Shown: positions 3,056 to 60,282, counted from the whole stretch's first letter. The stretch is DNA of 61,127 nucleotides, filler included, from 12 parts of 12 records of this genome joined end to end with filler, not necessarily neighbours in it; one strand, 5' to 3'. Notes: a model not told the origin generated them from the sequence alone. Numbers and translations are program-made.

Positions 3056-4765
3056 TCACGCCTGGCTTGCAGCAAACGCCTGAAGCCGCTGTTCAAGTTG
3101 TGCAGCAACACGCGGATCTGTCGCTCGAGCAATCTGCTTCATTAGCTCTGCCACAGTAACGTGCCTTTCATCGTGGCTGCCTTCCCAGGTAGTCTCTCCG
3201 AACTCAGCCATAAAGTCTTGCATCAGTACCTCGTCCACAAGATTCCTGTTCTCCTTCCAAGTAGTTCCGGCCGGCATTCGGATACCAGCTCTAGGGTGCG
3301 CCAGGCCTTCCCAGTGGTCAATTGAAACTCCAGCAAGACCCTGCCCGTCATACGATTTCGGGGCCTTGGCGGGATCGAATGGACCATGATTCGATTGCAC
3401 GATCACCACGTCGTCAATGACTTTGCCGTACATGTCTGGTCCAAAGAAGGTTGGGTCAGTCATGACTTGCTGCCACCGGATATGTGTGGCATTGTAAATT
3501 GTCATCTTTGAGTAGCCGAAAGTGTTCGAACGGAAGGCTGAGCGCGGCGGCTGCGGCAGGTTGAATGGCTCGTGCAGCTCCTTGCAGCCAGCAGCGCCGG
3601 TGACAATGTAAATTGGCGCCTTGGGCTCCAGATTGGATTGCCACGTCTTGTTGAGGTACGTCGGCCAGCTCCGCTCGTAGTTGTGTTCATGTCCGTTCAC
3701 AAACAGATCGACGCCCTGCTCGAAAATCAACTTCTCAAACCCGAAAGTGCCATTGGACCACGGACCGAGCCGCTGCTGCGAGGCTTCTCCGTCACAGTCT
3801 CCATCACAGGAGCAGTACATGGAGCGGTGTCCATTCACGATGATCCAGGGCACGTTGTGCCGGTTCTTGTTGGCTTTGATCAGGTCCTGTTCGAGCCAGT
3901 TGAACTGGTCGGCAATCAGCTTGTAGCCGCCCCTAGAGAGCATCGCCCCACCCTGGATCTCGGTGCTGATGCTCACATAGTGCACCAGCCCGGAGTCCCA
4001 AGAGAAATACCAGTTGTTGGGCGCCGGCCCGTTGACTGAGCTCACGTTGCCCGTGCTGCTCGGCATGTGCCTCCAGCTCTCGGTGTAGTGGGCCAGGCTC
4101 AGGTCGCCATCCTCGTGATTCCCGTGCGAGACCATGTACGGAAACCTGGCAGCCACCGGCTCAATGTTCCGGAAGAAATTGTCGGCGGTGGTCCCGCCGT
4201 TGGAGTCCATATCGTACGCGAAGTCGCCGGTGTGCAGTATCATGTCCGGTGCCTCCGAGATGATCCCGGCCGACCGGTTGGTGCACACGCAACGCTCGGC
4301 GCTGGTGCACGAGGGGCACAGACTGTACGCGAAGGCCGAGCCCATGTCGCCCATCAGGACGTGTACCTGGGGCAGCTGGGCCGCCAGGGTGCTCGCGTCC
4401 GCCTGAGACTTGAAATCGAACACCTCGGACCAGCCCGAGCTCTCCCCGCCCACCTTGTAGAAGTAGCTACTACTCGGGGCCAGCCCGCTCATCTCGGCCA
4501 CGTGCATCGTCCAGTTCCGGCCAGGATCGACCGTGAACAGCGTGCTAGACCCTTCCGCCGTCCGGTCCAGCTTGTCCGCGGCCGTGCCCCACCTGACGGT
4601 GCTCTCGGAGCCCAGCGAATCGTACGTCTGCCAGGCCACCCGCATCCGGCTCGGGTCAAGCCCGAGACCTAGCCGCACGCCGTCTGGACTGGTCAGGTTG
4701 CTCCCAGAGCAAGCCGCCACCATCATCATAAGCCCGATCCGGGTCATAAGCATCGAGTACGTCAT
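3056..4765 (-). CDS. Secreted purple acid phosphatase (ACP7-like metallophosphoesterase); intronless
   Basis: Signal peptide, FN3-like N-terminal domain (LAPSSSYFYKVG), and all five metal-ligand motifs: DMG, GDFAY, GNHE, NGHR, GHEH. Confidence 0.93.
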   Translation of the reverse strand: MTYSMLMTRIGLMMMVAACSGSNLTSPDGVRLGLGLDPSRMRVAWQTYDSLGSESTVRWGTAADKLDRTAEGSSTLFTVDPGRNWTMHVAEMSGLAPSSSYFYKVGGESSGWSEVFDFKSQADASTLAAQLPQVHVLMGDMGSAFAYSLCPSCTSAERCVCTNRSAGIISEAPDMILHTGDFAYDMDSNGGTTADNFFRNIEPVAARFPYMVSHGNHEDGDLSLAHYTESWRHMPSSTGNVSSVNGPAPNNWYFSWDSGLVHYVSISTEIQGGAMLSRGGYKLIADQFNWLEQDLIKANKNRHNVPWIIVNGHRSMYCSCDGDCDGEASQQRLGPWSNGTFGFEKLIFEQGVDLFVNGHEHNYERSWPTYLNKTWQSNLEPKAPIYIVTGAAGCKELHEPFNLPQPPRSAFRSNTFGYSKMTIYNATHIRWQQVMTDPTFFGPDMYGKVIDDVVIVQSNHGPFDPAKAPKSYDGQGLAGVSIDHWEGLAHPRAGIRMPAGTTWKENRNLVDEVLMQDFMAEFGETTWEGSHDERHVTVAELMKQIARATDPRVAAQLEQRLQAFAASQA

Positions 4766-4973
4766 GTCTGCCCCAAACGCACCTGCTGGTGCCACGAAGA
4801 GATTACGAGTCCTGCAAGGAATGAAAATAAATATAATAAAATGCGGTCACGTTGAGGATTGGATGTTCCACCTTCGTCCGTGGATTGCCAAATGTCAACT
4901 GTCGTGTCTTCAGGCTTGGCGTAGGGGTAGGGTCGAGGTGCTCAGGCCTGGGAGGGTTGCTTGAGTCCGCGTG

Positions 4974-7900
4974 ATGAGCAAGGCTCCGGATGTGGTCGGG
5001 TCGCCCGGCTGGCTGTGCTATGGGGACACGGTGCTGCTGTACTCGGACGAGGTGCAGGGCTACGTGGAGGGCCAGCTCGAGGGCGAGAGCTCAAAGCTCA
5101 CGCTATCCAGCCTGTGGGCGACCGACAAACCTAGCTCCCCGAGGGGAGGCGAGCAGTCAGCCACTAGCACGCGGCTCCCTCCGGTCGAGATCCGCGACTG
5201 CTTGTTCGTATTCGAGCCGAAACAGGTCACCTCCCCCCCTCCCGCGGAAATCCCACGGCGGGCGCAGGTATACACGTCACAGAATGGGAACAAAGAGGAT
5301 GCCCTGATGGCGAAGGCCGAGGCGCTGAGCAACAACCAGAAGATCGCCAAGTTCGCCGGGAACGAGATCACGATGGGCTCGCTGGTGCAGCTCAGGCACG
5401 TGCACACCGGACTGTACGTCGCGTTCATGCAAGGCCGGGCCGACGCCGACGCAAGGCTGTTGAAGGTGGACCAGCACGAGGGTGCAGCCTGCCGACTGAC
5501 GGCGGGGACAGGTGCACTTGCAGGCAGGAGCGCCCGAGTGCGCCTTCAGAATGAGCCCTGGGTGGGTGCTGGCTGCTGGGGGCGTGAGGCGTGGGGCAGG
5601 TTCAAGTCGTACAAGGTGGGAGACTCGTTGCGCTACCACGAGGTCTTGGCGCTCAAGACCGAGCAGAACTCGCTGCTGCTGCACACCACCCAGTTCAGGG
5701 TAGGCGCGCGGCTCTGGCTCGGCTGACTGCGCGCGCAGGAGCTGCCGGCCAACCGGCACGATTACGTCAAGGGGCTGTGGGAGCTGAACGCCTGCCCGGA
5801 CAGCGTGCAGCGCAACTACAAGTTTCGGGTGCTCCCTTTCAAGAGGGCCCAGGGCGCGGTCTGGCCCGTGCCGCTGGCTGGCGGGAGCGTGTGCCACATC
5901 TATCACACGGAGTTGGAGATGCTTCTGTCATCGTCGCAGGGCCAGTCGCTGGCGGCAAGCCAGTCTATCATCCCGGAGGATAAGAGCAACTCACGGCTGC
6001 GCCGCAGCAAGTCGTCACATGCTGAAGGGATTAAACTTGAAAATGATGTGATTCAGCAGAAGGTCTTCTTCGAGGGATTTGATCAGAGCACCTCAACCGA
6101 TGGCGTGTTCGAGTCCCAGGCGCTCTGGAGGCTGGAACCGCTGGCCGAGCCGTGGGGCGAAGGGCTGCAGACCAATCAACCAGTGAGGATAAAACACGTG
6201 ACCACTGGACAGTATCTGATCATGATCTCGATCCCATCAGCAACCACCCGAAGCGCGTCAGCTGAAGGCGCCGATCCAGGAGCTAGAGGCGTGGTGCAGC
6301 TGGTCAACACATACATGGATCCGAGGACGCTGTGGATGCTCGGTTCGAAGCTGGCCAATCAGACGCACGCTCTCTTTCAAGGGGAGAAAGTGTATTTACA
6401 GCACATCGAGACTGGCTTATGGATGATCAATCAAGAAGATGGTGTCGAGAATCTGTCTATGGAGGTTGAGCAATTGAAGAAGTCCCACCAAGTTGCGATC
6501 CGAGGCCAGGAAGGGCGGAGCGACGGCGACTTGTACGAGTTGCAGTTGCTCGACGAAGACTTGATCAGGCATCTGAGCCGCGTCGAGCAGAACCTTGTCA
6601 TAGTGCGAAGTGGGTTGCGAGCGTTGCACAGCATGTCCGACCCCTCTGTCAGTGCAGTGAATGCCGTGGCAGTAGAGCTGGAGGTTGCTTACAGCCGAAT
6701 GACGAAAGACTGCAAGGAACTTCGTGGCCTGGGCAGCACGTACCAGAAATTGTATGGTGACCAGGACGCTATCACGGATACTATTCAGCTGACGTTCTTT
6801 TTGTTCAGCCCGAAAAATTACTCTGAAAATAGCCATGGATGGCAGGGTGGGGGTTGGGGATTTGGCTTTCCTGGGTCTAAACACAGGGACGTCTCCACTG
6901 AAATCAAGAATATGGGGCGGCTGATGACTGGATTCCTGACTGCGGTGTGCAAGGGTCACAAAGATAACCAGTGTCGACTGGCTGTGTTCAAAGACCTCAT
7001 CGCGACACTGCTGCCATCGCCGTATGGGCATGCTGATTGCTATGCGGAATGCATACGGGACAATCGCGAGCTGATTCAAGACATGACGGGTGAGGACACT
7101 GACAAGATTCTCTCAGTGTTGGTTGAGCAGCAGACCGGGCAAAGTTTTAAACAGGACGCCTGGTTCAGCAAACCACCAGAACATTCTTTGCACGTTGGTG
7201 GGAGGTACGTGATGCTCTTGAGCATGCTCTGCAAGTGCGAAGGTGAGCCTGTTGTGGCCAACCAAAATCTTATCCTGGAGAACTTCTTCATGAAGTTCCC
7301 TGACATGAGACTGCGAGCATCTCCCGACTCGAGAACCACCTTAGTCGTGCCCTATTCATCACAAGCACTCACGGTTAGTTTGCCTGGGTTCAAGACAAAG
7401 CTCGAGCAGCGCCCTGAGATGTTGACTGTAAACTTGAGGGAACTCCAGATCGACGAGAGGCTGTTCCGCTACCACATTCAGGTGTTGAGGCTGCTCTCTG
7501 TGATGATGGATGGCCGGAATCGGCTGGTGACGGACTGGGTGCTGGCGGGCGAGCTGGACCCTGCGACTAGGGTCGGGCTGCGATATCACGAGCTGCTCGA
7601 GTCGATCCAAGATGAGACCCTGCCTCAGCTTTACCGTGCTGTCAGTTGTCAACTCCTCTACGTGCTGTATATCGACCGTGAACCCTACGAGGTTCTGCCG
7701 CACGTCTCACTGGTGCGCTGTGCCTCACTTGCCACCAAAAATCCGCTGGTGCAATCGGTGCCTGCAGTTCGGGTCAAGGTGGACCCTTTCGCGGGCAAGC
7801 TGGATGAGCTGCGGCCCACTGCTGGATTTAGTGATCTTCGAGCTTGGTTGGCACACTACTTTACTCGAGCTCCAAAGCTGTCTCCGGATCGGCCCTTCGA

Positions 7901-10900
7901 CGCAATGCTCATGAAGGAGGCGGTCAAGCTCGCACAAGCAATGTTAGACTTTGGACATCTGCATGGCGACGATGACCCATCCACACTGCAAAAACCCAGG
8001 AATGGGACTCTCGCGAGGATTGCTGAGCTGCTAGATCCAATGCTGGATCATTTTGATGCCCGCGCTGTAGGGCCACGGAACTTCGAATTCACACCCAACA
8101 CCGAAGACGCGCTCCAAGCAAGGCTGCTCATGGCCCAATTCCTACAATCTGCGTTTGACTGTCGCCAAGAGGTCCGTTTAGCCCTTGCATTCGAACAATT
8201 CGAATACTTGTTCGATCGCAAGTTCGTGCAGAACACGGCTGCAAATGGCAAGGCGAATCATATGAACCCTCTGTTCAAGCCCGGGGTCGAGCCCAATACG
8301 AGCAGCGCTTCTAAGTATCCAAGGGGCTCGGGCACAGCAATCGAGATGACTGGTTCAAGCCAGATGCATTTGGTGCTTCAGCAACTGGACGATTCACCGA
8401 CGTTTTGGCAGTCGAATGCTCCATGGGATGTAGCTGCGCTCGAGGAACTGAATAAATCTCTCTTCAACAGTCCCTTGATTGCTCCGAGAGTTTCAGCCGC
8501 TCAGACTCTAGACCCCCTGCCAGAATTCCCCAAGATGCTCCTCGACTTGGTCCAATACGAATATATGCCCCTGGTCACATCAGCACTCTCTCTGCTTGTG
8601 CGCCACTTTGGTCAACGAGCAGTGATGGTGACCAACATGGTCAACACACAGTGTGTGATGTACCCCGAGGTCGCTGGTCTGATGGCTCGAGTGAAAAGTG
8701 CCAAGTCTGAGATCCGCCGCCAACAAAAGTGGTTGACGTCGCCCGATGAGGCCAAGAGGATTCAAGGATTCCAGACGACGATGGCAAAGATTGACTCACT
8801 TGTCGAGATCTTGACGCTAGGGAGCGAAGTTGACATCAGTCCAGATTGGCGGATCACAATCACTAAGGTGGAAGTAGAAAAGTTCCAAAGTATGATGCGG
8901 CATCTCAAGGTTCACGAGCAGATTCTAAAGCTGCTCAAAATATCATTGCCGATCTACACCCGGTTCACCAAGAGCTGCTTCAAGGAGGTCTGGGACAGGC
9001 TTGTAGCAGAGGGCGAAATCACAGCAGGCGGCATTCAATCGGAGACTGAGCTGAACGTTGTCTGCAAAGCAGTTGGCAAATCAATGGGTTTGAGCGAGAG
9101 CATGTTGATCCTGCCCCCAGGAACTGCTCTACAGAACTTCGAGTCTCTAGGAGACTTTGACCTATTCTTCGAATGGTGGGAGCTCAACCTGCCCTTACCG
9201 TTGCCAAAGTTGTTTGATTGCATCTATACGTTCTTGGGTAGCTTCTGTAGCAATGCGGAGCCCAATCAGCAGATCTTGCACAATGAACATACGCTTTTCG
9301 AATCTCACATCAGCCGGATGAGGACCGGATTCTTCTTTAAATCTCTCTATGAGGGCAACAAGGGCACAAGCAACAGTGTCAAGGACACTTTATTACGGGA
9401 TTCTGTTGCGGTAGTGCTAGACCCCCAACGAGGGCCAGAACGTACGGCACATGCTTCATTCTTAGCTGCTGTCTGCTGCACACGCGGTCGCAGGAACTTG
9501 CGGGCTTCTAAACTGGTCATGCATCATCTCGAGGCCTTCGGTGCGATCAAGGCACCTGAGCTCAGTGACTATGCTGATGGCCCTGACAACCCCGACATCA
9601 CCCTGTTCTGCGAGATTCTGAGGATTCAAGTCTTGGCATGTCATGGTAAGGCTGCCGAGAACGAAATCAAGGCACAGTCGTTGTTCAAATATGACATGCT
9701 GCTTAGTGCCATTATTGATGGCAGTGCCATGATAGCCGCAGAGATGAAAGCTCACCAGGCTAAGGAGAAGCCCCCTTCGCCAGCGCAGAAGGAGCTTGAA
9801 GCGCTCCTGAATGATCCAAGTGCCAGTCCTGAAAAAGAGGAACGCATCAAGCTGGCTGTCGCTGCCCTTGGTGATGGTGAACTGGTAGACATAGAGGAGA
9901 AGCTTGGCGTAGACTTGGATGGTGATGGGGTGGTGGGAGACCCGAAAATTGTTGCATTCAGGAAGGCTGCAGGAGTAATGCTGCAATTCTTTAACGAGGT
10001 TTTTGTGTTTACAGGATCTCCTGCTGCTCGAATGGCTTGTGACTCAGGAGAGCGCTTACTGGCGACCGAGCCCGAAGGTCTAAACGACTGTCTATTTGGA
10101 TACTGCATCAGTGAAATGGAGCTGGCAATTGCCATGTATACTGATTGTGCTCAAGGTAATTTGAATATCCGAGGCGACAGAGCGCGCGAGGAGCAGGTGG
10201 AGTTACTCTGGGAAGGCATAATGCCAACGATTACAAACTATTACCAAGAGTACATAGTCCAATCCAAGTTTGAAGTCACAAGAGATGCTCTCTGCGCTCA
10301 GCTCGAGAAACTGAGGGATGTTGTCAGCAGGGAGCCTCGCCTCTTCGAGGATAGCCATTATCGGAAGCTGGAGCAAGCTTTAACATTTGTTGCCCCCAGC
10401 TTGGAAGGTCTCGTACAAGAGCCTGGCGACTTTGCAGAGGAGGATGACACTGTCTCAAAGCTCAGGCAGGCGTTCAAGGACGGCTGGTACGAATTTGCGG
10501 TGGCATTTGGAAGGTGGGCAGTCTAGAGCTAGCTATGTCCTCGCTGTAGTGCTGTGATTATGCGCTCACTTGTGTGTGATTGTGTAGCTCTATTGGCGTG
10601 AAAGACATCAAGCGTTCACTCGGCCCTGGCATTCGCAATTTGGGCATATTGTGTAACTCGGTGAAGATACCAGACACAGAGCGGTCATTCCAAGAAGTCT
10701 TGCTTCGGATATTTGAAGTGTTGCAAGAGCCTGGCGCTCCAGAAAAGCTCCTGTCGGATCTGCTCAGAATCACCCGGACGGCGCTGTACCTTGATGACCC
10801 CAATGACGTGCACCGAGAACTCCAGGCGGCAAATTGGGATGCCATGTGCAATGATGAGCCGCAGATGAAGCAGGAGCCGCACAAGGAATGTCTCGCGTGG

Positions 10901-11863: not shown

Positions 11864-11963
11864 NNNNNNNNNNNNNNNNNNNNNNNNNNNNNNNNNNNNN
11901 NNNNNNNTTAATTAATTAANNNNNNNNNNNNNNNNNNNNNNNNNNNNNNNNNNNNNNNNNNNN
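11864..11963. other. Artificial contig spacer N44-TTAATTAATTAA-N44. The same spacer occurs at 18233-18332, 22528-22627, 26011-26110, 32898-32997, 38581-38680, 43181-43280, 46575-46674, 49728-49827, 53217-53316 and 57830-57929.
   Basis: Eleven identical 100-bp blocks, each containing a six-frame stop linker; genes are cut off at these blocks. Confidence 0.98.
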
Positions 11964-18179: not shown

Positions 18180-18515
18180 TGTCCTGACGGTGCACCGCGT
18201 CGGATGCGTCGGATGCAGCCTCGGTTCATTCTNNNNNNNNNNNNNNNNNNNNNNNNNNNNNNNNNNNNNNNNNNNNTTAATTAATTAANNNNNNNNNNNN
18301 NNNNNNNNNNNNNNNNNNNNNNNNNNNNNNNNTCGTCCGTTGCAGCCCAAGCACCGACAGAAGCCTTACTTCCCGCGTGTCCAGAGAATAAAAAATCAAA
18401 TCACCTGGGACCGCGGGCGGGTTTGAAGCGGGCGGGTTCGACGTGAGGTGCTGGACCCCGGTGCTTGAGCGCTGAGCGTGCGGCGGAAGACCGGAAACAC
18501 CCCACGATTCCGGGA

Positions 18516-41444: not shown

Positions 41445-43024
41445 TCATGCAAAGACGACATCGTGCAATTGTTGGACATCTGCGACGCCAACCAGCTCCA
41501 TCCGCTCCACTCCAGCGCCGGACAGCTCACGACTCACCTAACGGCCCCTCAACGCCGCCCCTCGTTGCAGCACACCGCAGCTAGGTTCGAACTCGGCAGC
41601 ACCAGCTTCCGACAGCCTACCCTGGCGGCCTCGCTCGCTCGCTGGACCGCACCATGCACTCCCCGGACCTGCACCAGCTGTCACACAAGCATACGACTGG
41701 CTGGACCTGCCCAGTGAGCCCTATCTCACCAAAGCAGACGGTGCCAGGGCGCATCGGGTGCTTTGCGTGGCTGGAGATCATCGCCGCCACCACACTGGCG
41801 TCGGTACCTACCTCCTCCAGCCGCCCGCCACCAGCTACTGTGGTGATGATATCATGGGAGGCCAGCGAGAGCTTGGTGTGGGCTCGCAGCACGGCCGCGA
41901 GTGTCATCACGCGTTGCATCGCCATGCCTGTCACATAGTGCCGGCGGGGCGCGTCGGGCCTCCCGCCGACCAGCAGAGCCTGCACCTCGGCCACGATTGC
42001 TCTCGATCCCATCATCGTACTGACTAGTGCCGACCCAGCGCGCGGCGTCGACGCGGCTTGCAGTATCAAGCTCGAAGGGTCGTCAACGGAACGCATCCCG
42101 GTGTCGGTGATCTCGAATATGCCAACCTCCTGGGTAGCTCCGAATCGGTTCTTTAGGCAGCGCAGCAGCCGATGCTGCGAGTTGCCCTGGTCATGATCAA
42201 AGTACAGAACTACATCGCACGCGTGCTCGAGCAGTCTGGGGCCGGCAATAGCCCCGTCCTTTGTCAGGTGCGCCATCGCAATCACCGAAGTCTGGCTCGT
42301 CTTGGCCAGTTCAAGCAGCGCCTGGCTCACTTCACGGACCCCGGACACGGAGCCAGCTGCACCGTTACTGCCAGTGATTGTCTGTGCCGAGTCGAGTACC
42401 ACCAAAGCTGGCCGGCGCTGCTCGATCATCGCCAGCAGCCCGTCCAGGCTGCTCGCAGGGGCCGCCAGCAGGTTTTGGGGAGGGCTCTGGCTCACCCTCT
42501 GTGCCCTGGCCGCCACTTGCTGCATGCTCTCCTCACCCGACGCGTAAAGCACCGCGCTCTCAGGCTGACTCGCGGCCACACCGAGCGCCGCCTGCAGTCC
42601 GAGCGTGCTCTTGCCAACCCCGGGCTCGCCCCCGATCAGCACGAAGCTTCCGGCAGCCAGCCCCCCCCCCGAGGACCCTATCGAGATCGGGCAGCCCAGT
42701 GGGCACCCTGGCGAGCCCCGCGGCAGAAGCGAACTGCATGATAGGGGCCGCCTGGTCCGGGGAGCCAGCGGGGGCTGCGGCCGACGGCTTGAGCGCCTTG
42801 AAGATGGTGTCCCAGCCGCCGCACTGCGGGCACTGGCCCTGCCAGGCCAGCAGCGTGTGCCCGCACTGTACGCAGCTGAATCCCAGCGGCTTGCGCTTAC
42901 CGCCCGCCGCCCAGCGCGCACCATGCACCCCTGGTGCGCGCTGGAGGGCCCGCCCCGGCGCCAGCCGCCATGCGTTCAGCCCAGCTGATAGGCATCCGGC
43001 CGGCATCCGACGCTGCTCTCCCAT
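41445..43024 (-). CDS. radA: DNA repair protein RadA/Sms, probably organelle-targeted; +1 frameshift in a G10 run; 2 introns
   Basis: C4 zinc finger CVQCG...WQGQCPQCGGW, TGLPDLDRVLGGG, Walker A GEPGVGKST, KNRFG signature, and Lon-like C-terminus GEIGLTGQVR. Confidence 0.93.
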
Positions 43025-43121
43025 AACGGAATTCGGTTGGCACCTCGACGGGGACACCGCGCGCAGCTGGGCGTTGAGCAGCTACGAGTGCGCTGCTGGT
43101 CGTGCTCAACCGGGTTTCTCG

Positions 43122-43180: not shown

Positions 43181-43388
43181 NNNNNNNNNNNNNNNNNNNN
43201 NNNNNNNNNNNNNNNNNNNNNNNNTTAATTAATTAANNNNNNNNNNNNNNNNNNNNNNNNNNNNNNNNNNNNNNNNNNNNCTTTGACTCAGATATTGGTT
43301 GCCATTGCACCTGTTATTCAGTTTCGTGATTAGGCGTCATCTAGTATATTGAACTTGTACTTGTATATTGAACACCCATACAATACCA

Positions 43389-46300
43389 TCACTGTACGAA
43401 GCTCTCCTTATGCAATCGTAGAGGCATAACTATGCTTGACTCTTCCATCGTTGCCAACGCCTTGTCGACAGACTTGTTGAATGCAGGAGGTCCACACACA
43501 AACACGTCGATCGTGGTTTCCAGCTTCTCCTGATATGTTGTCTGTGACTCACCTACAGCTTTAGACCGGGTGCCATTACAGTCCGTGTTCTCTCCCTGCT
43601 GGATGGTACCGAACATGTCTTGGAGACTGTATATTGTCACCTCCTGCCAGTCAGGCCGACCGGCATACAGACGGATTCGTGGGTCAAACAGTATAGCTTT
43701 CAAGATGCCACGCCGGTGCAACATCCGGCACACATCCAGAAATATTGTAGAGGCGAAGTCGGACGGAAGACCCCGAGTCTGGTAAAGGTGACATGTGAAG
43801 TGCAGCCTACCCTGATCTGCGTGGACAAACAATCTTGACATCACCTCTGAGTCCAAGAGTTGAAACATGTACAGGTCATTACACAACCAATGGAATGCCA
43901 GCGTCTGGACATTGCAGCGCTTCCCTGCGGGCAGTGATCGGTCCTGGTGGTCAAGAGCATCCGCAATGTCCGCCAGTATGCTCAAGTAAGGGGTCACACC
44001 AACCCCTGCCGTGAAAATTAGCACATGCTGCTGGTATGGCAGCCGCTGCACATGCGAAAAAAATGGGCCTCTCAACCTTCCTTTGAGCAGCCCATCGCCA
44101 ACCCCCTTCTGTGCATCGGCTGCGATGTCGACCAGCGTGCTGGACCAGTCACCCTGTGCGAAAATAACAAAGCTTTGCTTTTGCTGGTGGCCAGAACTAC
44201 TCAGGGATATCGGGTGAAACTCATCCCGTAGAGACTCTACAGAATCAACTGATAGTTGAGCCCACTGCCCAGTTTGCCATCGCCTGTCGTCAGCAGCCTT
44301 CCCGCGCAGATCACACTCGCCAGTGAGCCGAGCAATTCTTGTCCCTGGTATTTTCTCAATCCGGCAGAGAAAATTCTGGCTATTTTTTTGTCCGTCACGC
44401 ACTAAGTAAAAGTCCAATGCCAGCATCAACACAGGAGCCGCCAGCCAGTAGGTAGACACAAGTGGGACGTGCACAAACACCAGTACAATCAGCAAGAGAT
44501 ATAGGTTGTGTATTCCAGCAAAGGTTTGCCACGATATGAGGGCTCTGATATGCTTGGATGAAAATATAGCAATAGTCATCAGAGCAATCAGAGCAAGCAG
44601 TCCAGATAGCCCGACCACACTTTCATACAAGTATGATGCCCCAGGTTGTATCTCCTGTGATGAATATGTTCCAAGTAAGCAATGCAAGCATCCGGGCTGC
44701 TCAATATTAGGTATAGTTGCACTGAAGTGAACTATGGAATGTGTGAGGCCACTAAGAGCTGCCATCCAGCCTGCGAATGCATGAAGCACCTTGGGAGCTT
44801 TGTGCAGCGGAATCCAAACCTGTACAGCGGTATCCTGGGCCCATGTCAGAGAGGCCAGCATCCGAGTAGTCAGGCTTCCAACCATATTGAGCATAAACAA
44901 GTTTGCGCTACCTGGCCAGTTTGAGCAATCATTGGGGTACAGAGGCTAGGCACGCACCTTTAGCCAAGCCACTAGCGAGGTATCCGGTACACTTCTTTCT
45001 CAGCGTACTTGTGGTTCCAGCCCAAAACGTTAGCCCAAACACCAGTGCATTCATTGCGAAGATCACAACATACAAACTGTAGTGCCAGTTCCGTCTCAAA
45101 TTCCGCTCCCAGCAGTAGCTGTGCTCATATCGCTCCGAGCCAGTCCCTGGAAGCCTCCAGTGGCTCGGAGCCTCCAGTGGCTGAAACTTGTCCACTGCAG
45201 GCTTCAGATGCTGGAGCTGCAACACAGCGCTTAGCCCAATCAACGTACTGGGCTAGCCAGCTACCTGCATCTGAAAACGGTTGAGGAACAGTGCCCTGCC
45301 GTCGTGGGTACAGAGCAGTGCTGCACTGTCAGTGACAGCCTGGGAGAGCTGCTTCTCACAGCAGCCCTCCAGATATAGTGCGCACTGTGCCCGTAGCGGA
45401 CAGTTGAGAATCACTCTAGACAGCTGGTGCATGATCAAAAGTGAGTCATTCATCCCAAACGCAAGATCCATCAGTCCCATGGTCGAAGCCCGCGTCGGAG
45501 TGAGTATCTGTGTGCCCTCCCGACTACACGGGGAGTCGCAGATCACATCCACCAGTAATTCTTTCGCATCCGGTGTGCCGGGTGAGATGTCCAGCGATGT
45601 GTCGGCTGAAATGTCATGCCGAGTCTCCATTGGTTGCAACGCCGCATTTGTATCATCAGGACTGACCTCCCCAATGTCCTGGAAGGCTATATTGAATACC
45701 ACGTGCCCCGTGCTGTCTCGCACTGGGAAAACATACAGTGCGTTGTCCACCGGCTTGCCTGCTTTCGTATAATTGATCAGCCGGACAAACACAGGCCGCT
45801 TCTCACGGATCGCATCTGAGAGCTCCAGCACTTTACATCGGTTTGTCATGGCGCCTTGCAGAAATCTGCAGTTCCTGCCCAGCACTTCGCCCTCTGTAAA
45901 GCCCAGCCGGTCCAGGAACGTCTGACTAACGAACACCAACTCGCTATCCGGCAACATTGGATCCGAAATCGAAAAGCAGAGCTGCCGCTCGCCGATGCCG
46001 GGCGATGCAGAGTCACGCTGCTCCTGCACCCGAGCCAGCAGCCCGTGCGCCAGCTCAATCAGCTCGCTGAGCGCCTGTTGCCGGTCGGACTGGGCCACAA
46101 AACCAGAGTGCACCATGTCTTGCCAGAAGAGGCCCGCGGTACTCAGCAGCGAGACGTCGGGTCGCCCCAGCTCCTCAGATGGAGTGGACGCATGGCCGGC
46201 GGTCGAGGTCAGCACCGAGTCCAGCCGCCGCAGCACCGAGTCCAGCCGCACCTCGTGCTGCGATGCCCGCCGAGGTCGCTTCGGCGATCCCCCGCGCACC

Positions 46301-46574
46301 GGTCCATGCGGCTGTGGACTGTGTGGCGGAGAAGACTCGGTGGCCGCAGTCCAGCCGCCGCAGTCCGAGTCCGCCGCCGGCAATGCGTCCACTCCCTCTG
46401 CTGGCATAGCGGGTGATCGACCAGGGGCTTCATGCATGGCCACTGGTTGCGATGTAGAGCCATGCGCGAGCGGGTTGAGCTCACTGGCGATGACTGGGAT
46501 CCCAACAGACTGGACAGACGCCAGTCCAAGCCCCGTCCTGCCCTCCCCAACAAATGAAGGGCCATTCACCGGGC
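43389..46574 (-). CDS. LOV-domain / NADPH oxidase (RBOH/NOX-type) fusion protein; introns 45217-45264 and 44912-44957; 5' truncated
   Basis: LOV domain ~45680-45980 (SDP.LPD..LVFVS..F..., GRNCRFLQG, LINYTKAG, N..., Q). Ferric reductase TM domain with four heme His. FAD motifs HPISLSS, GDWS, GPF. NADPH motifs AGVGVTP, FHW, GRPDW, VFVCGP, HKESF. Confidence 0.88.
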
Positions 46575-46674
46575 NNNNNNNNNNNNNNNNNNNNNNNNNN
46601 NNNNNNNNNNNNNNNNNNTTAATTAATTAANNNNNNNNNNNNNNNNNNNNNNNNNNNNNNNNNNNNNNNNNNNN

Positions 46675-57829: not shown

Positions 57830-58512
57830 NNNNNNNNNNNNNNNNNNNNNNNNNNNNNNNNNNNNNNNNNNNNTTAATTAATTAANNNNNNNNNNNNNNN
57901 NNNNNNNNNNNNNNNNNNNNNNNNNNNNNTACGAATTTTGATACGTTCACAAGTCCAGCTTAGCCAGTTACTTTGTAGACTAGTACTTATCCAACCGATC
58001 AATCAGATTTCGAGCAGATGGCCCGAGGTCTAGTACTGCTATAGTACTGCACGCCGGAAGTAAGTTCAATACTCGTAGGCTGCAACCGGTTGTACAATTA
58101 TCAATAATAAAAGAAAAGGATCCATAGATCTTATTTTGCAATTAACACCACTTGTTCTCAAGCGACTCGATGTTATTTCATCGATCCCCGGCTTTATTGG
58201 CACACTGCTTCGGTGGACCTCCGTGGACCCCGCCGGTGCGCGCGTCGAAGCCAAGGACCCTAGTTGGACGCGCGGACGCGAAACTGCGAAAGGGTTGTAC
58301 AACCATTTCACCTCAGCCCAATCCACGAAGGACCTCCAGACCTTCAACTGCTTGATCGACCGAAGATGGATTTTGATTTTGGCTTCGTGCGGCAAAAATC
58401 GCGACTACGGCAGGGACCTAACCAACTGAGAAGACATGAGAGCCCACAATCTCTGATGCTTGAGACGCCCGAAGCGCGCGCTGAGGTTCTTCGAGCGGGA
58501 TCCTATTGTGCC

Positions 58513-60282
58513 ATGTCCTCCGCCGGCGCCGCGCCCGAAAGCTCGAGCACGCTCCAAGGCAGATTGCCGGCTGTGCCGGGGTCATACGCATGTCCGATCA
58601 CCACGGAGGTGATGGAGGACCCCGTGATGGCGGCCGACGGGTTCACCTACGAGCGGGAGGCCATCTCGTCGTGGATTCGTTGCAAGGGCACCTCGCCCAA
58701 GACCGGCCAGACGATGCCGCACGGCAACTTATACCCCAACCACGAGAAGCGGGCAGCGATCGCCGAATGGAAGAGCAAGTACGAAGGACCGCACACAGCG
58801 CAGCAGACCCAGTTGGCCAACTCGTCCACCAAGATTGCTTGGGCTTCCTCGTCCTCCGAGGCGGTCCAGGAACTCGAGCGGCTCGGGACGATGGTGATCC
58901 AGACGTGTACGGTGGTCCCGCCGCAACAACTTGCCCGGATGCGCGTCTGCCTCAAGGCGGACGAAAGCATCTGGTGCACGGAGGTTGAGCGGGCGGTCGA
59001 GAACGTTGAGAGCCATTGCCGGTCGGTGAGCGGGATGCTCAACCAGCGGATGCAGAAGGCCCAGATGACCGCGGAACGGGCGGCTAAGACCGGCAAGGAG
59101 ATGGCGGCCGGGGTGATTGATCTCCAGACTGAATTGAATAGTGCTCAGCAGCAAGTAAACATGCTCAAGCAACGGCTGGCTCAGGCGGGAGAGGGCCCTC
59201 GGAAGATGTGGTGCATGGAGCAGATGTATTCACGCGAGGCCGAGAAGATGCGGGACAGTTTGGTCAGCGCTGGCTGGCCGATGGAGGATCTGATGGCAGC
59301 AAGCAACGATAACAAGCGGCCCGTCGAGGCCGAGCAAGCTGACCAAGAGCACGAGACAGCAAAGCGCGCCAAGACATCTCAGACAGACTTGTCCTCGGAC
59401 CACGTGATGGAGCAGGCGCTGATGCTCGACCACGACTGCGGGCACGAGCGCGTGCTGACGGAGCTCGCCGCCGAGCTCGGAAACCAAGTCGCCAAGGCCA
59501 GATGCCAGCTCTCCGGCTGGGCAGGATTCAAGTCGGATTCAGCCGAGGCCTTCAGACTGCTCGAGCCGATCGCCAAGGACACCCCGGTCGGCCAGTGCTG
59601 CCTGGCCGAGTGCTACGAGTATGGGCTCGGAACTCAGCAAGATCCGAGCCAAGCTGTACTTTGGTACACGACCGCCGCAGACCAAGGTCTCCCGAGAGCC
59701 CAGTGCTCGCTCGGGGCGTGTTACCGGGACGGGATTGGCGTGGATGTTGACTTTCCCCGAGCGGCCGAGTTGTTCTGCAAGGCGGCTCAGCAGGGGCACG
59801 CGCGGGCCCAGTGCTGCATGGCAAAATGCTTTGAGCTCGGACGTGGTATGGAGCAGAGCCACATCAAGGCGCTCCAGTGGTATCACCTGGCGGCCCAGCA
59901 AGGGCACCCGTGGGGTCAATGCTGGCTGGGCACCGCCTGCCACCGAGGGCTCGGGATGCCTGTGAGCAGGCCGGCGGCTGAACAATGGTTCAAGAAGTCC
60001 GCCGAGCAAGGCGACCCGCAGGCGCTCTGCTGCCTGGGTGAGTACTGCGAGCATGGGCTCGTGGGGCAAGTCGACAAGCAGAAGGCCTTGATGTACTACA
60101 TGAAGTCTGCCAAGAAGGGCCATCCGAGGGCACAGCACCACCTGAGGCAACACATGAAGCGGATGCAAGCCGCCAAGGCGCAACAGGGCAACCCCCAGGG
60201 CAACCCCCAGGGCAATCCCCAGGGCCAGCGCTCTACACCCCCCCGAGCACCTGCCCCCGCACAATGGCCCAAGTGCCAGTAA
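58513..60282 (+). CDS. U-box E3 ligase with coiled coil and Sel1-like repeats; intronless; start may be further upstream
   Basis: CPITTEVMEDPVMAADGFTYEREAISSW...TSPKT; about 5-6 SLR units (AQCSLGACYRDGIGV...KAAQQGH); GNPQ x3 tail. Confidence 0.92.
   Translation: MSSAGAAPESSSTLQGRLPAVPGSYACPITTEVMEDPVMAADGFTYEREAISSWIRCKGTSPKTGQTMPHGNLYPNHEKRAAIAEWKSKYEGPHTAQQTQLANSSTKIAWASSSSEAVQELERLGTMVIQTCTVVPPQQLARMRVCLKADESIWCTEVERAVENVESHCRSVSGMLNQRMQKAQMTAERAAKTGKEMAAGVIDLQTELNSAQQQVNMLKQRLAQAGEGPRKMWCMEQMYSREAEKMRDSLVSAGWPMEDLMAASNDNKRPVEAEQADQEHETAKRAKTSQTDLSSDHVMEQALMLDHDCGHERVLTELAAELGNQVAKARCQLSGWAGFKSDSAEAFRLLEPIAKDTPVGQCCLAECYEYGLGTQQDPSQAVLWYTTAADQGLPRAQCSLGACYRDGIGVDVDFPRAAELFCKAAQQGHARAQCCMAKCFELGRGMEQSHIKALQWYHLAAQQGHPWGQCWLGTACHRGLGMPVSRPAAEQWFKKSAEQGDPQALCCLGEYCEHGLVGQVDKQKALMYYMKSAKKGHPRAQHHLRQHMKRMQAAKAQQGNPQGNPQGNPQGQRSTPPRAPAPAQWPKCQ

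Follow-up and report, generated by a model that had tools for sequence, protein, structure and literature searches.

Known outputs of LOV domains include kinases, transcription factors and second-messenger enzymes, and NADPH oxidases (NOX) are known to be regulated by Ca2+, phosphorylation and cytosolic subunits. A contig within the stretch of DNA analysed here (hereafter the window; 61,127 nucleotides (nt), filler included) raises the question of whether these two known designs, the one-chain LOV photoreceptor and the sensor-regulated NOX, are joined in a single protein, in which blue light would gate a transmembrane redox enzyme. An earlier interpretation of the locus at 43389-46574 (hereafter the sequence-only reading) had proposed that three minus-strand open reading frames (ORFs) become one frame of ~1030 amino acids (aa) through two GT-AG introns, placing a LOV photosensor ahead of a complete NOX. 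Our analysis supports a single LOV domain that lies N-terminal to, and by NOX topology cytosolic to, a complete core of six helices, four heme-binding histidines and lobes for flavin adenine dinucleotide (FAD) and NADPH. This LOV–NOX combination is probably a real and undescribed architecture, with LOV replacing the EF-hand module of NOX5/DUOX-type oxidases, and it joins the two designs in one chain.

The gene fills a single contig (43281-46574, 3,294 bp) on the minus strand. Joining 45265-46572, 44958-45216 and 43389-44911 gives 3,090 nt, corresponding to 1,029 codons and a stop codon with no internal stops, so that the proposed frame is reproduced by splicing in silico, and the coordinates and motifs of the sequence-only reading could all be located in the sequence, including the cysteine codon at 45868-45870. 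The reading frame is open at the 5′ edge of the contig, so that the true N terminus may lie beyond it and the protein has at least 1,029 residues. The parts of the gene are as follows, with TM denoting transmembrane helices and AF2 denoting AlphaFold2.

45265-46572, minus strand: exon 1, 436 codons, open to the contig 5′ end, with a GC-rich low-complexity N-terminal region, the LOV domain and a linker of ~136 aa
46009-46092, minus strand: predicted long helix, residues ~161-188, in the A′alpha/N-cap position; predicted by AF2 only, with no homologue support
45673-45987, minus strand: LOV core, residues ~196-300, from phmmer against the PDB, alignment A1 and AF2 (pLDDT 94-96)
45868-45870, minus strand: codon of the predicted adduct-forming Cys235, aligned to the Cys of phototropin-2 LOV2
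45217-45264, minus strand: putative intron 1, 48 nt, phase 0, CAG/GTAGCT...TGTTGCAG/CT, with an in-frame TAG at 45253-45255
44958-45216, minus strand: exon 2, the end of the linker and NOX TM1 (residues ~479-503, 45016-45090)
44912-44957, minus strand: intron 2, 46 nt, phase 1, AAG/GTGCGT...GGCCAG/GT, retention of which would shift the frame
43389-44911, minus strand: exon 3, 506 codons and TGA, with TM2-TM6, the four heme His, the FAD lobe and the NADPH lobe
44469-44783, minus strand: heme His H566/H580 (TM3) and H657/H670 (TM5), with H584 and S625-G626, from A2 columns and the DUOX1 and profile alignments
44196-44216, minus strand: FAD motif HPISLSS (family consensus HPFT.TS), aligned to HPFTLTS of DUOX1
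43458-44030, minus strand: NADPH-binding domain (AGVGVTP, GRPDW, CGPP), NAD_binding_6 at exon 3 residues 294-484
43398-43412, minus strand: C-terminal HKESF, residue 1023
43281-43388, minus strand: 3′ untranslated stretch, running to the contig end, 37% GC; an RNA contig of run X7 (43323-43473) crosses the stop codon

The two introns differ in how they are supported. For intron 1 there are 21 in-frame GT-AG options of at most 150 nt that delete the TAG, and LOV and NOX stay in one frame under all 21; the option chosen by the sequence-only reading has the best borders of the 21 and a size like that of intron 2, and its splicing is predicted from sequence. Alignments to P0008, P0004 and P0019, like that to a profile of 50 homologues, pass the exon 2/3 junction without a gap, within the conserved [KR]G.A...N motif that starts TM2, which independently supports intron 2 and the assignment of exon 2 to the oxidase. 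Exon 2 contains no ATG from the TAG to the middle of TM1, and a stand-alone NOX would therefore have no start codon. Upstream, the exon 1 frame stays open for 136 codons beyond LOV, as far as the donor site. Joining ORFs over the whole window in a search for further short introns gave 716 candidates, a number that is uninformative in such GC-rich DNA. Both putative introns (46 and 48 nt) share the hexamer CTAGCC at +9 to +14 past the GT, which may be a lineage-specific intron signal or chance. The GC content at third codon positions (GC3) drops steadily along the gene, from 0.71 in the N-terminal region through 0.67 in LOV and 0.62 in the linker and exon 2 to 0.54 in exon 3.

Pfam assigns PAS_9 to the photosensor part, covering residues 208-300 (E 1.2e-13; 51.7 bits, cut-off 27), and at E<=0.01 exon 1 has nothing besides this one PAS_9 stretch, with no kinase. 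In the PDB its top phmmer match is LOV2 of Arabidopsis phototropin-2 (6qqh_A, E 7.5e-26), with 95 distinct sequences at E<=1e-10, those listed being LOV domains; further matches include other phototropin LOV2 domains, miniSOG variants (7qf4, 7qf2), bacterial LOV kinases, EL222 and aureochrome, and the phototropin of Chlorella variabilis has 50% identity to the LOV part. A LOV profile built without the window row finds the exon 1 ORF at E 1.7e-33. The sequence-only reading held that the domain keeps the photoactive Cys, both Asn and the Gln, and all of these fall in columns that are invariant in alignment A1 of 34 LOV sequences (the GRNCRFLQ block, N128, N138 and Q159); in spliced numbering they lie at GRNCRFLQG 232-240 (Cys235), LINYTK 265-270 (N267), N277 and Q298. 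The AF2 model of the LOV core has a five-strand sheet and helices (pLDDT 94-96), preceded by a helix of 28 residues (22-49 of the 297-aa piece modelled; pLDDT about 78-84) and followed by a 7-residue helix, ~50 disordered residues and then low-confidence helices up to exon 2. The linker by itself gave only a chance-level match in Pfam. Judged by these residues and the modelled fold, the domain would be expected to bind flavin mononucleotide (FMN) and to undergo a photocycle.

The remainder of the protein carries the NOX/RBOH hallmarks in the order previously proposed, all of them at spliced positions 479-1023. In the membrane and FAD parts the motifs start at NWHY 479, AKGSANLF 521-528 (which spans the exon 2/3 junction), HPISLSS 755 and GDWS 776, and in the NADPH lobe at AGVGVTP 824, GRPDW 940, CGPP 995 and HKESF 1023. 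Alignment A2 contains 50 homologues of the 72 best matches; the 22 that were dropped, mainly very long or fragmentary sequences, were removed under a size limit with no strict rule (P0003, 20, 29, 33, 38, 42, 44, 46, 48, 51, 52, 53, 55, 56, 57, 61, 63, 64, 66, 67, 69 and 71). The His pairs H566/H580 and H657/H670, with 13 and 12 residues in between, are spaced as in NOX2, in which the heme His are H101/H115 and H209/H222 (PMC3591440), and occupy invariant or nearly invariant columns of A2. A profile of the 50 homologues, built without the window row, matches as one domain at residues 478-1027 (277.6 bits), beginning just before TM1. In a phmmer search, exon 3 aligns to DUOX1 from TM2 to the C terminus (E 6.3e-19), and also to NOX5, the dehydrogenase domain of csNOX5 (E 1e-9) and NOX2. 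Its AF2 model (pLDDT 83.8, pTM 0.83) has DUOX1, NOX2 (TMq 0.73 to the activated state, 8wej_B), NOX5 and SpNOX as top Foldseek matches. Pfam reports NAD_binding_6 (E 5.7e-13; 49.7 against 22.2 bits), and the transmembrane and FAD parts are detected by pairwise, custom-profile and fold comparison only; in the FAD lobe, HPISLSS and GDWS are present, align to DUOX1 and belong to a beta-barrel in the model, with Pfam FAD_binding_8 below its cut-off. The matches to PAS_9, NAD_binding_6, phototropin-2 LOV2 and DUOX1 are far beyond chance. A HMMER scan of 1.84 billion representative sequences returned 754 relatives at E<=0.001, of which 93 reach E<=1e-10, while E<=1e-30 is reached by none; no self-hit appeared, indicating that the protein is missing from that library.

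Four positions in NOX2 numbering (His101, His119, Thr178 and Gly179) have been described as telling NOX that make reactive oxygen species (ROS) from metal reductases (Zhang et al. 2013, PMC3591440). Three of the four are kept in the window protein, as H566 (His101), H584 (His119) and G626 (Gly179), and the Thr178 position carries the conservative replacement S625, the equivalences being taken from the DUOX1 and profile alignments and not from a transmembrane alignment to NOX2. This signature favours an oxidase over a metal reductase, although not decisively; O2 would be the electron acceptor and superoxide the product.

The continuity of the gene can be followed in contigs from two other sequencing runs. 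A DNA contig of run X1 covers 44992-45651, from TM1 to a point 24 nt before the LOV core, and run X2, which carries a ~97% variant, has DNA contigs at 43897-45429 and 45433-46228, the latter extending as far as 46407. Taken as a set, the three contigs follow the gene in window order from exon 3 up to the N-terminal region: the X1 contig bridges the X2 break at 45429/45433, and the second X2 contig takes the linker into LOV and further. The sequence-only reading had named a chimeric join between 45000 and 45700 as a possible refutation, and the separately assembled X1 contig spans 44992-45651 of the window. The X2 indels are all multiples of 3 (24 nt in exon 2, 45148-45178; 12 nt in the linker, 45576-45589; 141 nt replaced by 15 nt in the N-terminal region, 46228-46370), and they are confined to the N-terminal region, the linker and the stretch before TM1, with none in the LOV core or the NOX core. 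Among the 40 of 77 X1/X2 differences that are listed, 28 are non-synonymous, 11 synonymous and 1 intronic, and no listed X2 substitution falls at Cys235, Asn267, Asn277 or Gln298. The locus is known in one uncultured lineage, represented by the window contig and the near-identical to ~97% contigs of the two other runs.

What occupies the N-terminal position in related proteins bears on the role of LOV. Among 51 sequences scanned with Pfam (window exon 3 and the 50 homologues), NAD_binding_6 was found in 50, Ferric_reduct in 49, FAD_binding_8 in 49, EF-hand_7 in 26, An_peroxidase in 18 and PAS in none. The claim that LOV stands in the position of the Ca2+ sensor agrees with EF-hand_7 being at that place in 26 of the 51. 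No EF-hand was detected in exon 1 or exon 2 of the window gene at Pfam E<=0.01, and the N-terminal 470 residues have no phmmer match at E<=10 among the 150 best NOX relatives. A scan of Joint Genome Institute (JGI) metagenomes with exon 3 gave 76 pattern matches and no relatives.

In the NOX family, electrons from NADPH reach O2 on the other side of the membrane by way of FAD and then of the inner and outer hemes, with the termini and the dehydrogenase lobe in the cytosol, and the activity of NOX5 and DUOX is controlled by N-terminal EF-hands (PMC9421330, PMC3591440). The gene would encode a single membrane protein with 1,029 or more residues, consisting of a cytosolic disordered region, a long helix, an FMN-type LOV domain, a linker of ~180 residues and the NOX core, in which six helices would hold two b-type hemes, the FAD and NADPH lobes would lie on the cytosolic side and superoxide would be released on the far side. 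Blue light would generate a Cys235–flavin adduct, after which the helices flanking LOV may rearrange; the linker or the LOV surface could alter the docking of the dehydrogenase lobe to the membrane domain, or its coupling to it, and electron flow would be switched on or off. LOV sits where NOX5, DUOX and RBOH carry EF-hands, which makes light gating of catalysis the most likely way of working, and the disordered linker and a TM2-TM3 loop less basic than the consensus suggest a coupling unlike textbook J-alpha levers. Predicting a complex of LOV (with its flanking helices) and exon 3 gave a score of 0.02, where the mark is 0.34; the supplied alignments did not enter the prediction, and its result counts as evidence neither way. 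We regard a light-gated oxidase, with the coupling of LOV to catalysis inferred, as having a modest edge over even chances. Bolder, and held tentatively at somewhat below even chances, is the proposal that this is the first natural photoreceptor with a transmembrane electron transfer output, a single-chain blue-light-gated NADPH oxidase with LOV in the EF-hand slot, by which a marine protist would switch extracellular superoxide by light independently of the photosynthetic supply of NADPH.

Several observations weigh against this interpretation. At the gene level, intron 1 has 20 alternative in-frame GT-AG options and the frame runs off the contig at its 5′ end, both of which are weak points, and a LOV-only protein that stops at the single in-frame TAG between the LOV and NOX frames is formally possible. 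RNA contigs, which come from two metatranscriptome runs and hint at transcription, are confined to 43323-43831 and 44288-44685, within exon 3 and the 3′ untranslated region, with none crossing intron 1 or intron 2; since they do not reach an intron, they speak neither for nor against the junctions, and as RNA libraries can carry DNA, they leave even transcription unproven. Run X1 or X2 may be the source sample of the window itself, and in the 28 non-synonymous against 11 synonymous differences among those listed, purifying selection is not clearly visible. The NOX part has diverged strongly (best identity 27% among the 1.84 billion representatives) and departs from its homologues in HPFT becoming HPIS, GPFG becoming GPFF and the less basic TM2-TM3 loop. 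Of the four Pfam families that the sequence-only reading had expected, PAS_9 and NAD_binding_6 were recovered from the separate exons, and the other two were not: on exon 3 alone FAD_binding_8 is sub-threshold (E 0.014; 15.9 against 22 bits) and Ferric_reduct is not reported. The 7-residue helix followed by disorder past LOV leaves no obvious lever of the J-alpha type. Finally, a second fusion did not appear in any collection searched: a LOV-like part is present in none of the 150 best NOX relatives (phmmer; LOV profile at E<=1); of 124 longer proteins matching the LOV region and linker, none of the 120 listed carries PF08030, PF08022 or PF01794; none of 8,000 candidate longer proteins matches exon 3 at E<=0.001; and in a JGI scan with A2, which gave 163 relatives of which 80 were kept, a LOV-like ORF (E<=1, either strand) lies near none of the 80, ~45 of these loci having at least 1.5 kb upstream of the match and the positive control on the window contig reaching E 1.7e-33. 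Spliced eukaryotic gene models are scarce in these collections, so that the missing second fusion is weak evidence, and the LOV–NOX fusion may be rare or merely unsampled.

Two rival readings would dissolve the fusion. If the gene model were wrong, LOV and NOX would be separate products, with LOV ending at the TAG of intron 1, or the locus would be a decaying pseudogene; the in-frame TAG between the parts, the lack of RNA contigs over the junctions, the missing orthologue of the same architecture in the searched collections and the predominance of residue-changing differences among those listed would all fit. Against this reading stand an exon 2 that has no ATG before the middle of TM1 even though its alignment to NOX homologues takes in TM1 and the residues ahead of it, a TAG enclosed in a segment that has good GT...AG borders and the size class of the homology-supported intron 2, and an exon 1 frame that runs open to the donor 136 codons past LOV. 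The frame-preserving nature of every indel in the ~97% variant (N-terminal region, linker and exon 2) and 1,029 codons free of stops and frameshifts also speak against it, and we consider an error of either kind quite unlikely. A chimeric contig, made from a LOV gene and a NOX gene of different places or organisms, could be suspected from the short contig, the metagenome-type assembly and the fall in GC3 from 0.71 in the N-terminal region to 0.54 in exon 3. It would have to account for separately assembled contigs of two other runs that tile the gene in the same order, X1 bridging the X2 break, and for the fact that no contig diverges into unlike sequence within the gene, the sole loose end being at 46407; we judge it highly improbable. 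One real fused gene is, in our assessment, very likely.

The other rivals accept the fusion and change its meaning. The protein might be a light-regulated reductase of ferric iron or another metal, which would make extracellular Fe(III) available for uptake by reducing it when light indicates a need. NOX and FRE enzymes share a common core and are indistinguishable by fold, the Thr178 position carries Ser, the matched Pfam domain is named 'Ferric reductase NAD binding domain', and the source environment is marine; iron is scarce in seawater. This reading is set against the presence of the extra NOX-type His (H584, equivalent to NOX2 His119) together with the His101 and Gly179 equivalents, and against top sequence and fold matches to DUOX, NOX5 and NOX2 rather than FRE, and it appears unlikely. 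It is also conceivable that LOV does not gate catalysis and serves as a dimerization or localization module or a flavin redox sensor, or that light controls something besides turnover. The linker of ~180 residues is mostly disordered or of low confidence in AF2, no J-alpha-like helix leads from LOV to TM1, and a long helix lies ahead of LOV, as in LOV proteins that dimerize. A purely structural role would nevertheless have no need of the photocycle residues, all of which are kept, and N-terminal regulatory sensor domains are the rule among the nearest NOX relatives; we regard a non-gating LOV as improbable and light gating of an oxidase as the preferred reading.

As a light-gated oxidase, the window protein would stand closest to NOX5, DUOX and RBOH (the 'NOX-EF' group of Zhang et al. 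2013), which are its closest sequence relatives. They share the same core order, with six helices, NOX2-type His spacing, the His119-type His, FAD and NADPH lobes and a C-terminal aromatic motif, and they likewise have a cytosolic sensor N-terminal to TM1. Unlike them, the window protein has no detected EF-hand, NADPH_Ox or peroxidase domain; its sensor is LOV and its presumed input is blue light instead of Ca2+, its identity to any EF-hand NOX is at most 27%, and it has HPIS for HPFT and Ser at Thr178. The prokaryotic SpNOX and csNOX5 have the same fold (Foldseek E 1e-15 to 1e-13), and the C-terminal Phe followed by two residues in SpNOX (F397 of 399) recurs in the window protein; SpNOX has no sensor domain and csNOX5 has EF-hands, whereas the window protein has LOV.

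With LOV photoreceptors (phototropin, aureochrome, LOV histidine kinases, EL222, marine LOV-HSF, LOV-EF-hand and RGS-LOV proteins) the window protein shares the canonical core and the one-chain sensor–effector design. Its effector, in contrast, would be a transmembrane redox enzyme and not a kinase, DNA-binding domain or cyclic-nucleotide enzyme. Phototropin has two LOV domains and a Ser/Thr kinase, compared with one LOV and no kinase here, and in place of the J-alpha helix of LOV photoreceptors there is a long, partly disordered linker. In miniSOG, an engineered LOV2 derivative of which variants are among the top PDB matches of the window LOV, a LOV domain serves for the production of ROS in blue light, the ROS being made photochemically from its own flavin. 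MiniSOG has no adduct Cys (G in the 7qf4 alignment), whereas the window LOV keeps it; in the window protein ROS would come enzymatically, from NADPH through the hemes, with LOV merely the switch.

The sequence-only reading knew of no characterized LOV–NOX protein, and a full-text literature search likewise found no LOV–NOX fusion or light-gated NADPH oxidase described, a listing in supplementary domain tables or a LOV census remaining possible. The available text of two studies of NOX evolution (PMC3591440, PMC9421330) mentions neither PAS nor LOV, and in the available main text of two marine LOV surveys (PMC8017926, PMC13737086) the words 'oxidase', 'NADPH', 'ferric' and 'reductase' are absent. 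LOV partners named in the available passages are bZIP (in aureochromes), kinase, EF-hand, HSF, RGS and homeobox domains. A Chattonella transcriptome lists LOV and NOX genes as separate genes (PMC6685483), and the available text of a review of algal light responses mentions NADPH oxidase in its reference list only (PMC13436692). Light-dependent extracellular superoxide is widespread in phytoplankton and is inhibited by the flavoenzyme inhibitor diphenyleneiodonium (DPI), its light dependence being ascribed to reductive stress and NADPH use in a study whose available main text contains neither 'LOV' nor 'photoreceptor' (PMC12684733). If the proposed function is true, a photoreceptor-oxidase would be a second, direct and testable route to light-dependent marine superoxide. 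It would make a membrane redox enzyme a new class of LOV effector and add a new mode of NOX regulation. As a tool, it could provide a natural light switch for reactive oxygen that is catalytic and located on a defined side of the membrane, a one-gene, NADPH-fuelled and light-switched source of ROS to complement photosensitizers such as miniSOG.

The identity of the host can be approached from the rest of the window, which is not one piece of a chromosome and instead consists of ~12 contigs (3-12 kb each) linked by spacers; that the gene sits on one short contig of such a chain, with its 5′ end open, had escaped the sequence-only reading. The spacers are as follows.

11864-11963, 18233-18332, 43181-43280, 46575-46674 and seven more sites: spacers of the form N44-TTAATTAATTAA-N44

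The spacers place stops in all six frames, and 'genes' that flank a spacer are consequently not genomic neighbours. The 31-mers of the window occur in 20 of 24 listed public runs, all of them marine or seawater metagenomes and metatranscriptomes (top shares 0.43, 0.36 and 0.29), and other contigs of the window carry eukaryotic genes. At 3059-4846 (minus strand) lies an ORF for a purple acid phosphatase with no introns, which has 64-79% identity to proteins from marine metagenomes and metatranscriptomes. The named relatives nearest to it belong to several groups (choanoflagellate 56%, Incisomonas 53%, diplonemids ~46-52%), which places the host as an uncultured marine protist and no more narrowly; a phototropin-like LOV alone does not show that the host is a green alga. 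A search of the window for tRNA genes and Rfam families gave no matches.

Other contigs of the window carry genes that stand apart from the LOV–NOX locus. At 41620-43081 on the minus strand is a RadA/Sms-like gene (AAA_25, KaiC and DnaB_C matches) that is apparently split over two overlapping frames; its zinc-ribbon-like N-terminal part and its ATPase part both run through a GGG-rich stretch, and the split could be a frameshift from an assembly error or a very short intron. There is also an epoxide hydrolase gene, and a 672-codon ORF at 58264-60279 (plus strand) combines a U-box with Sel1 repeats. An open frame of 1,599 codons at 5727-10523 (plus strand) has MIR and RIH domains and the look of a Ca2+ channel similar to IP3 and ryanodine receptors.

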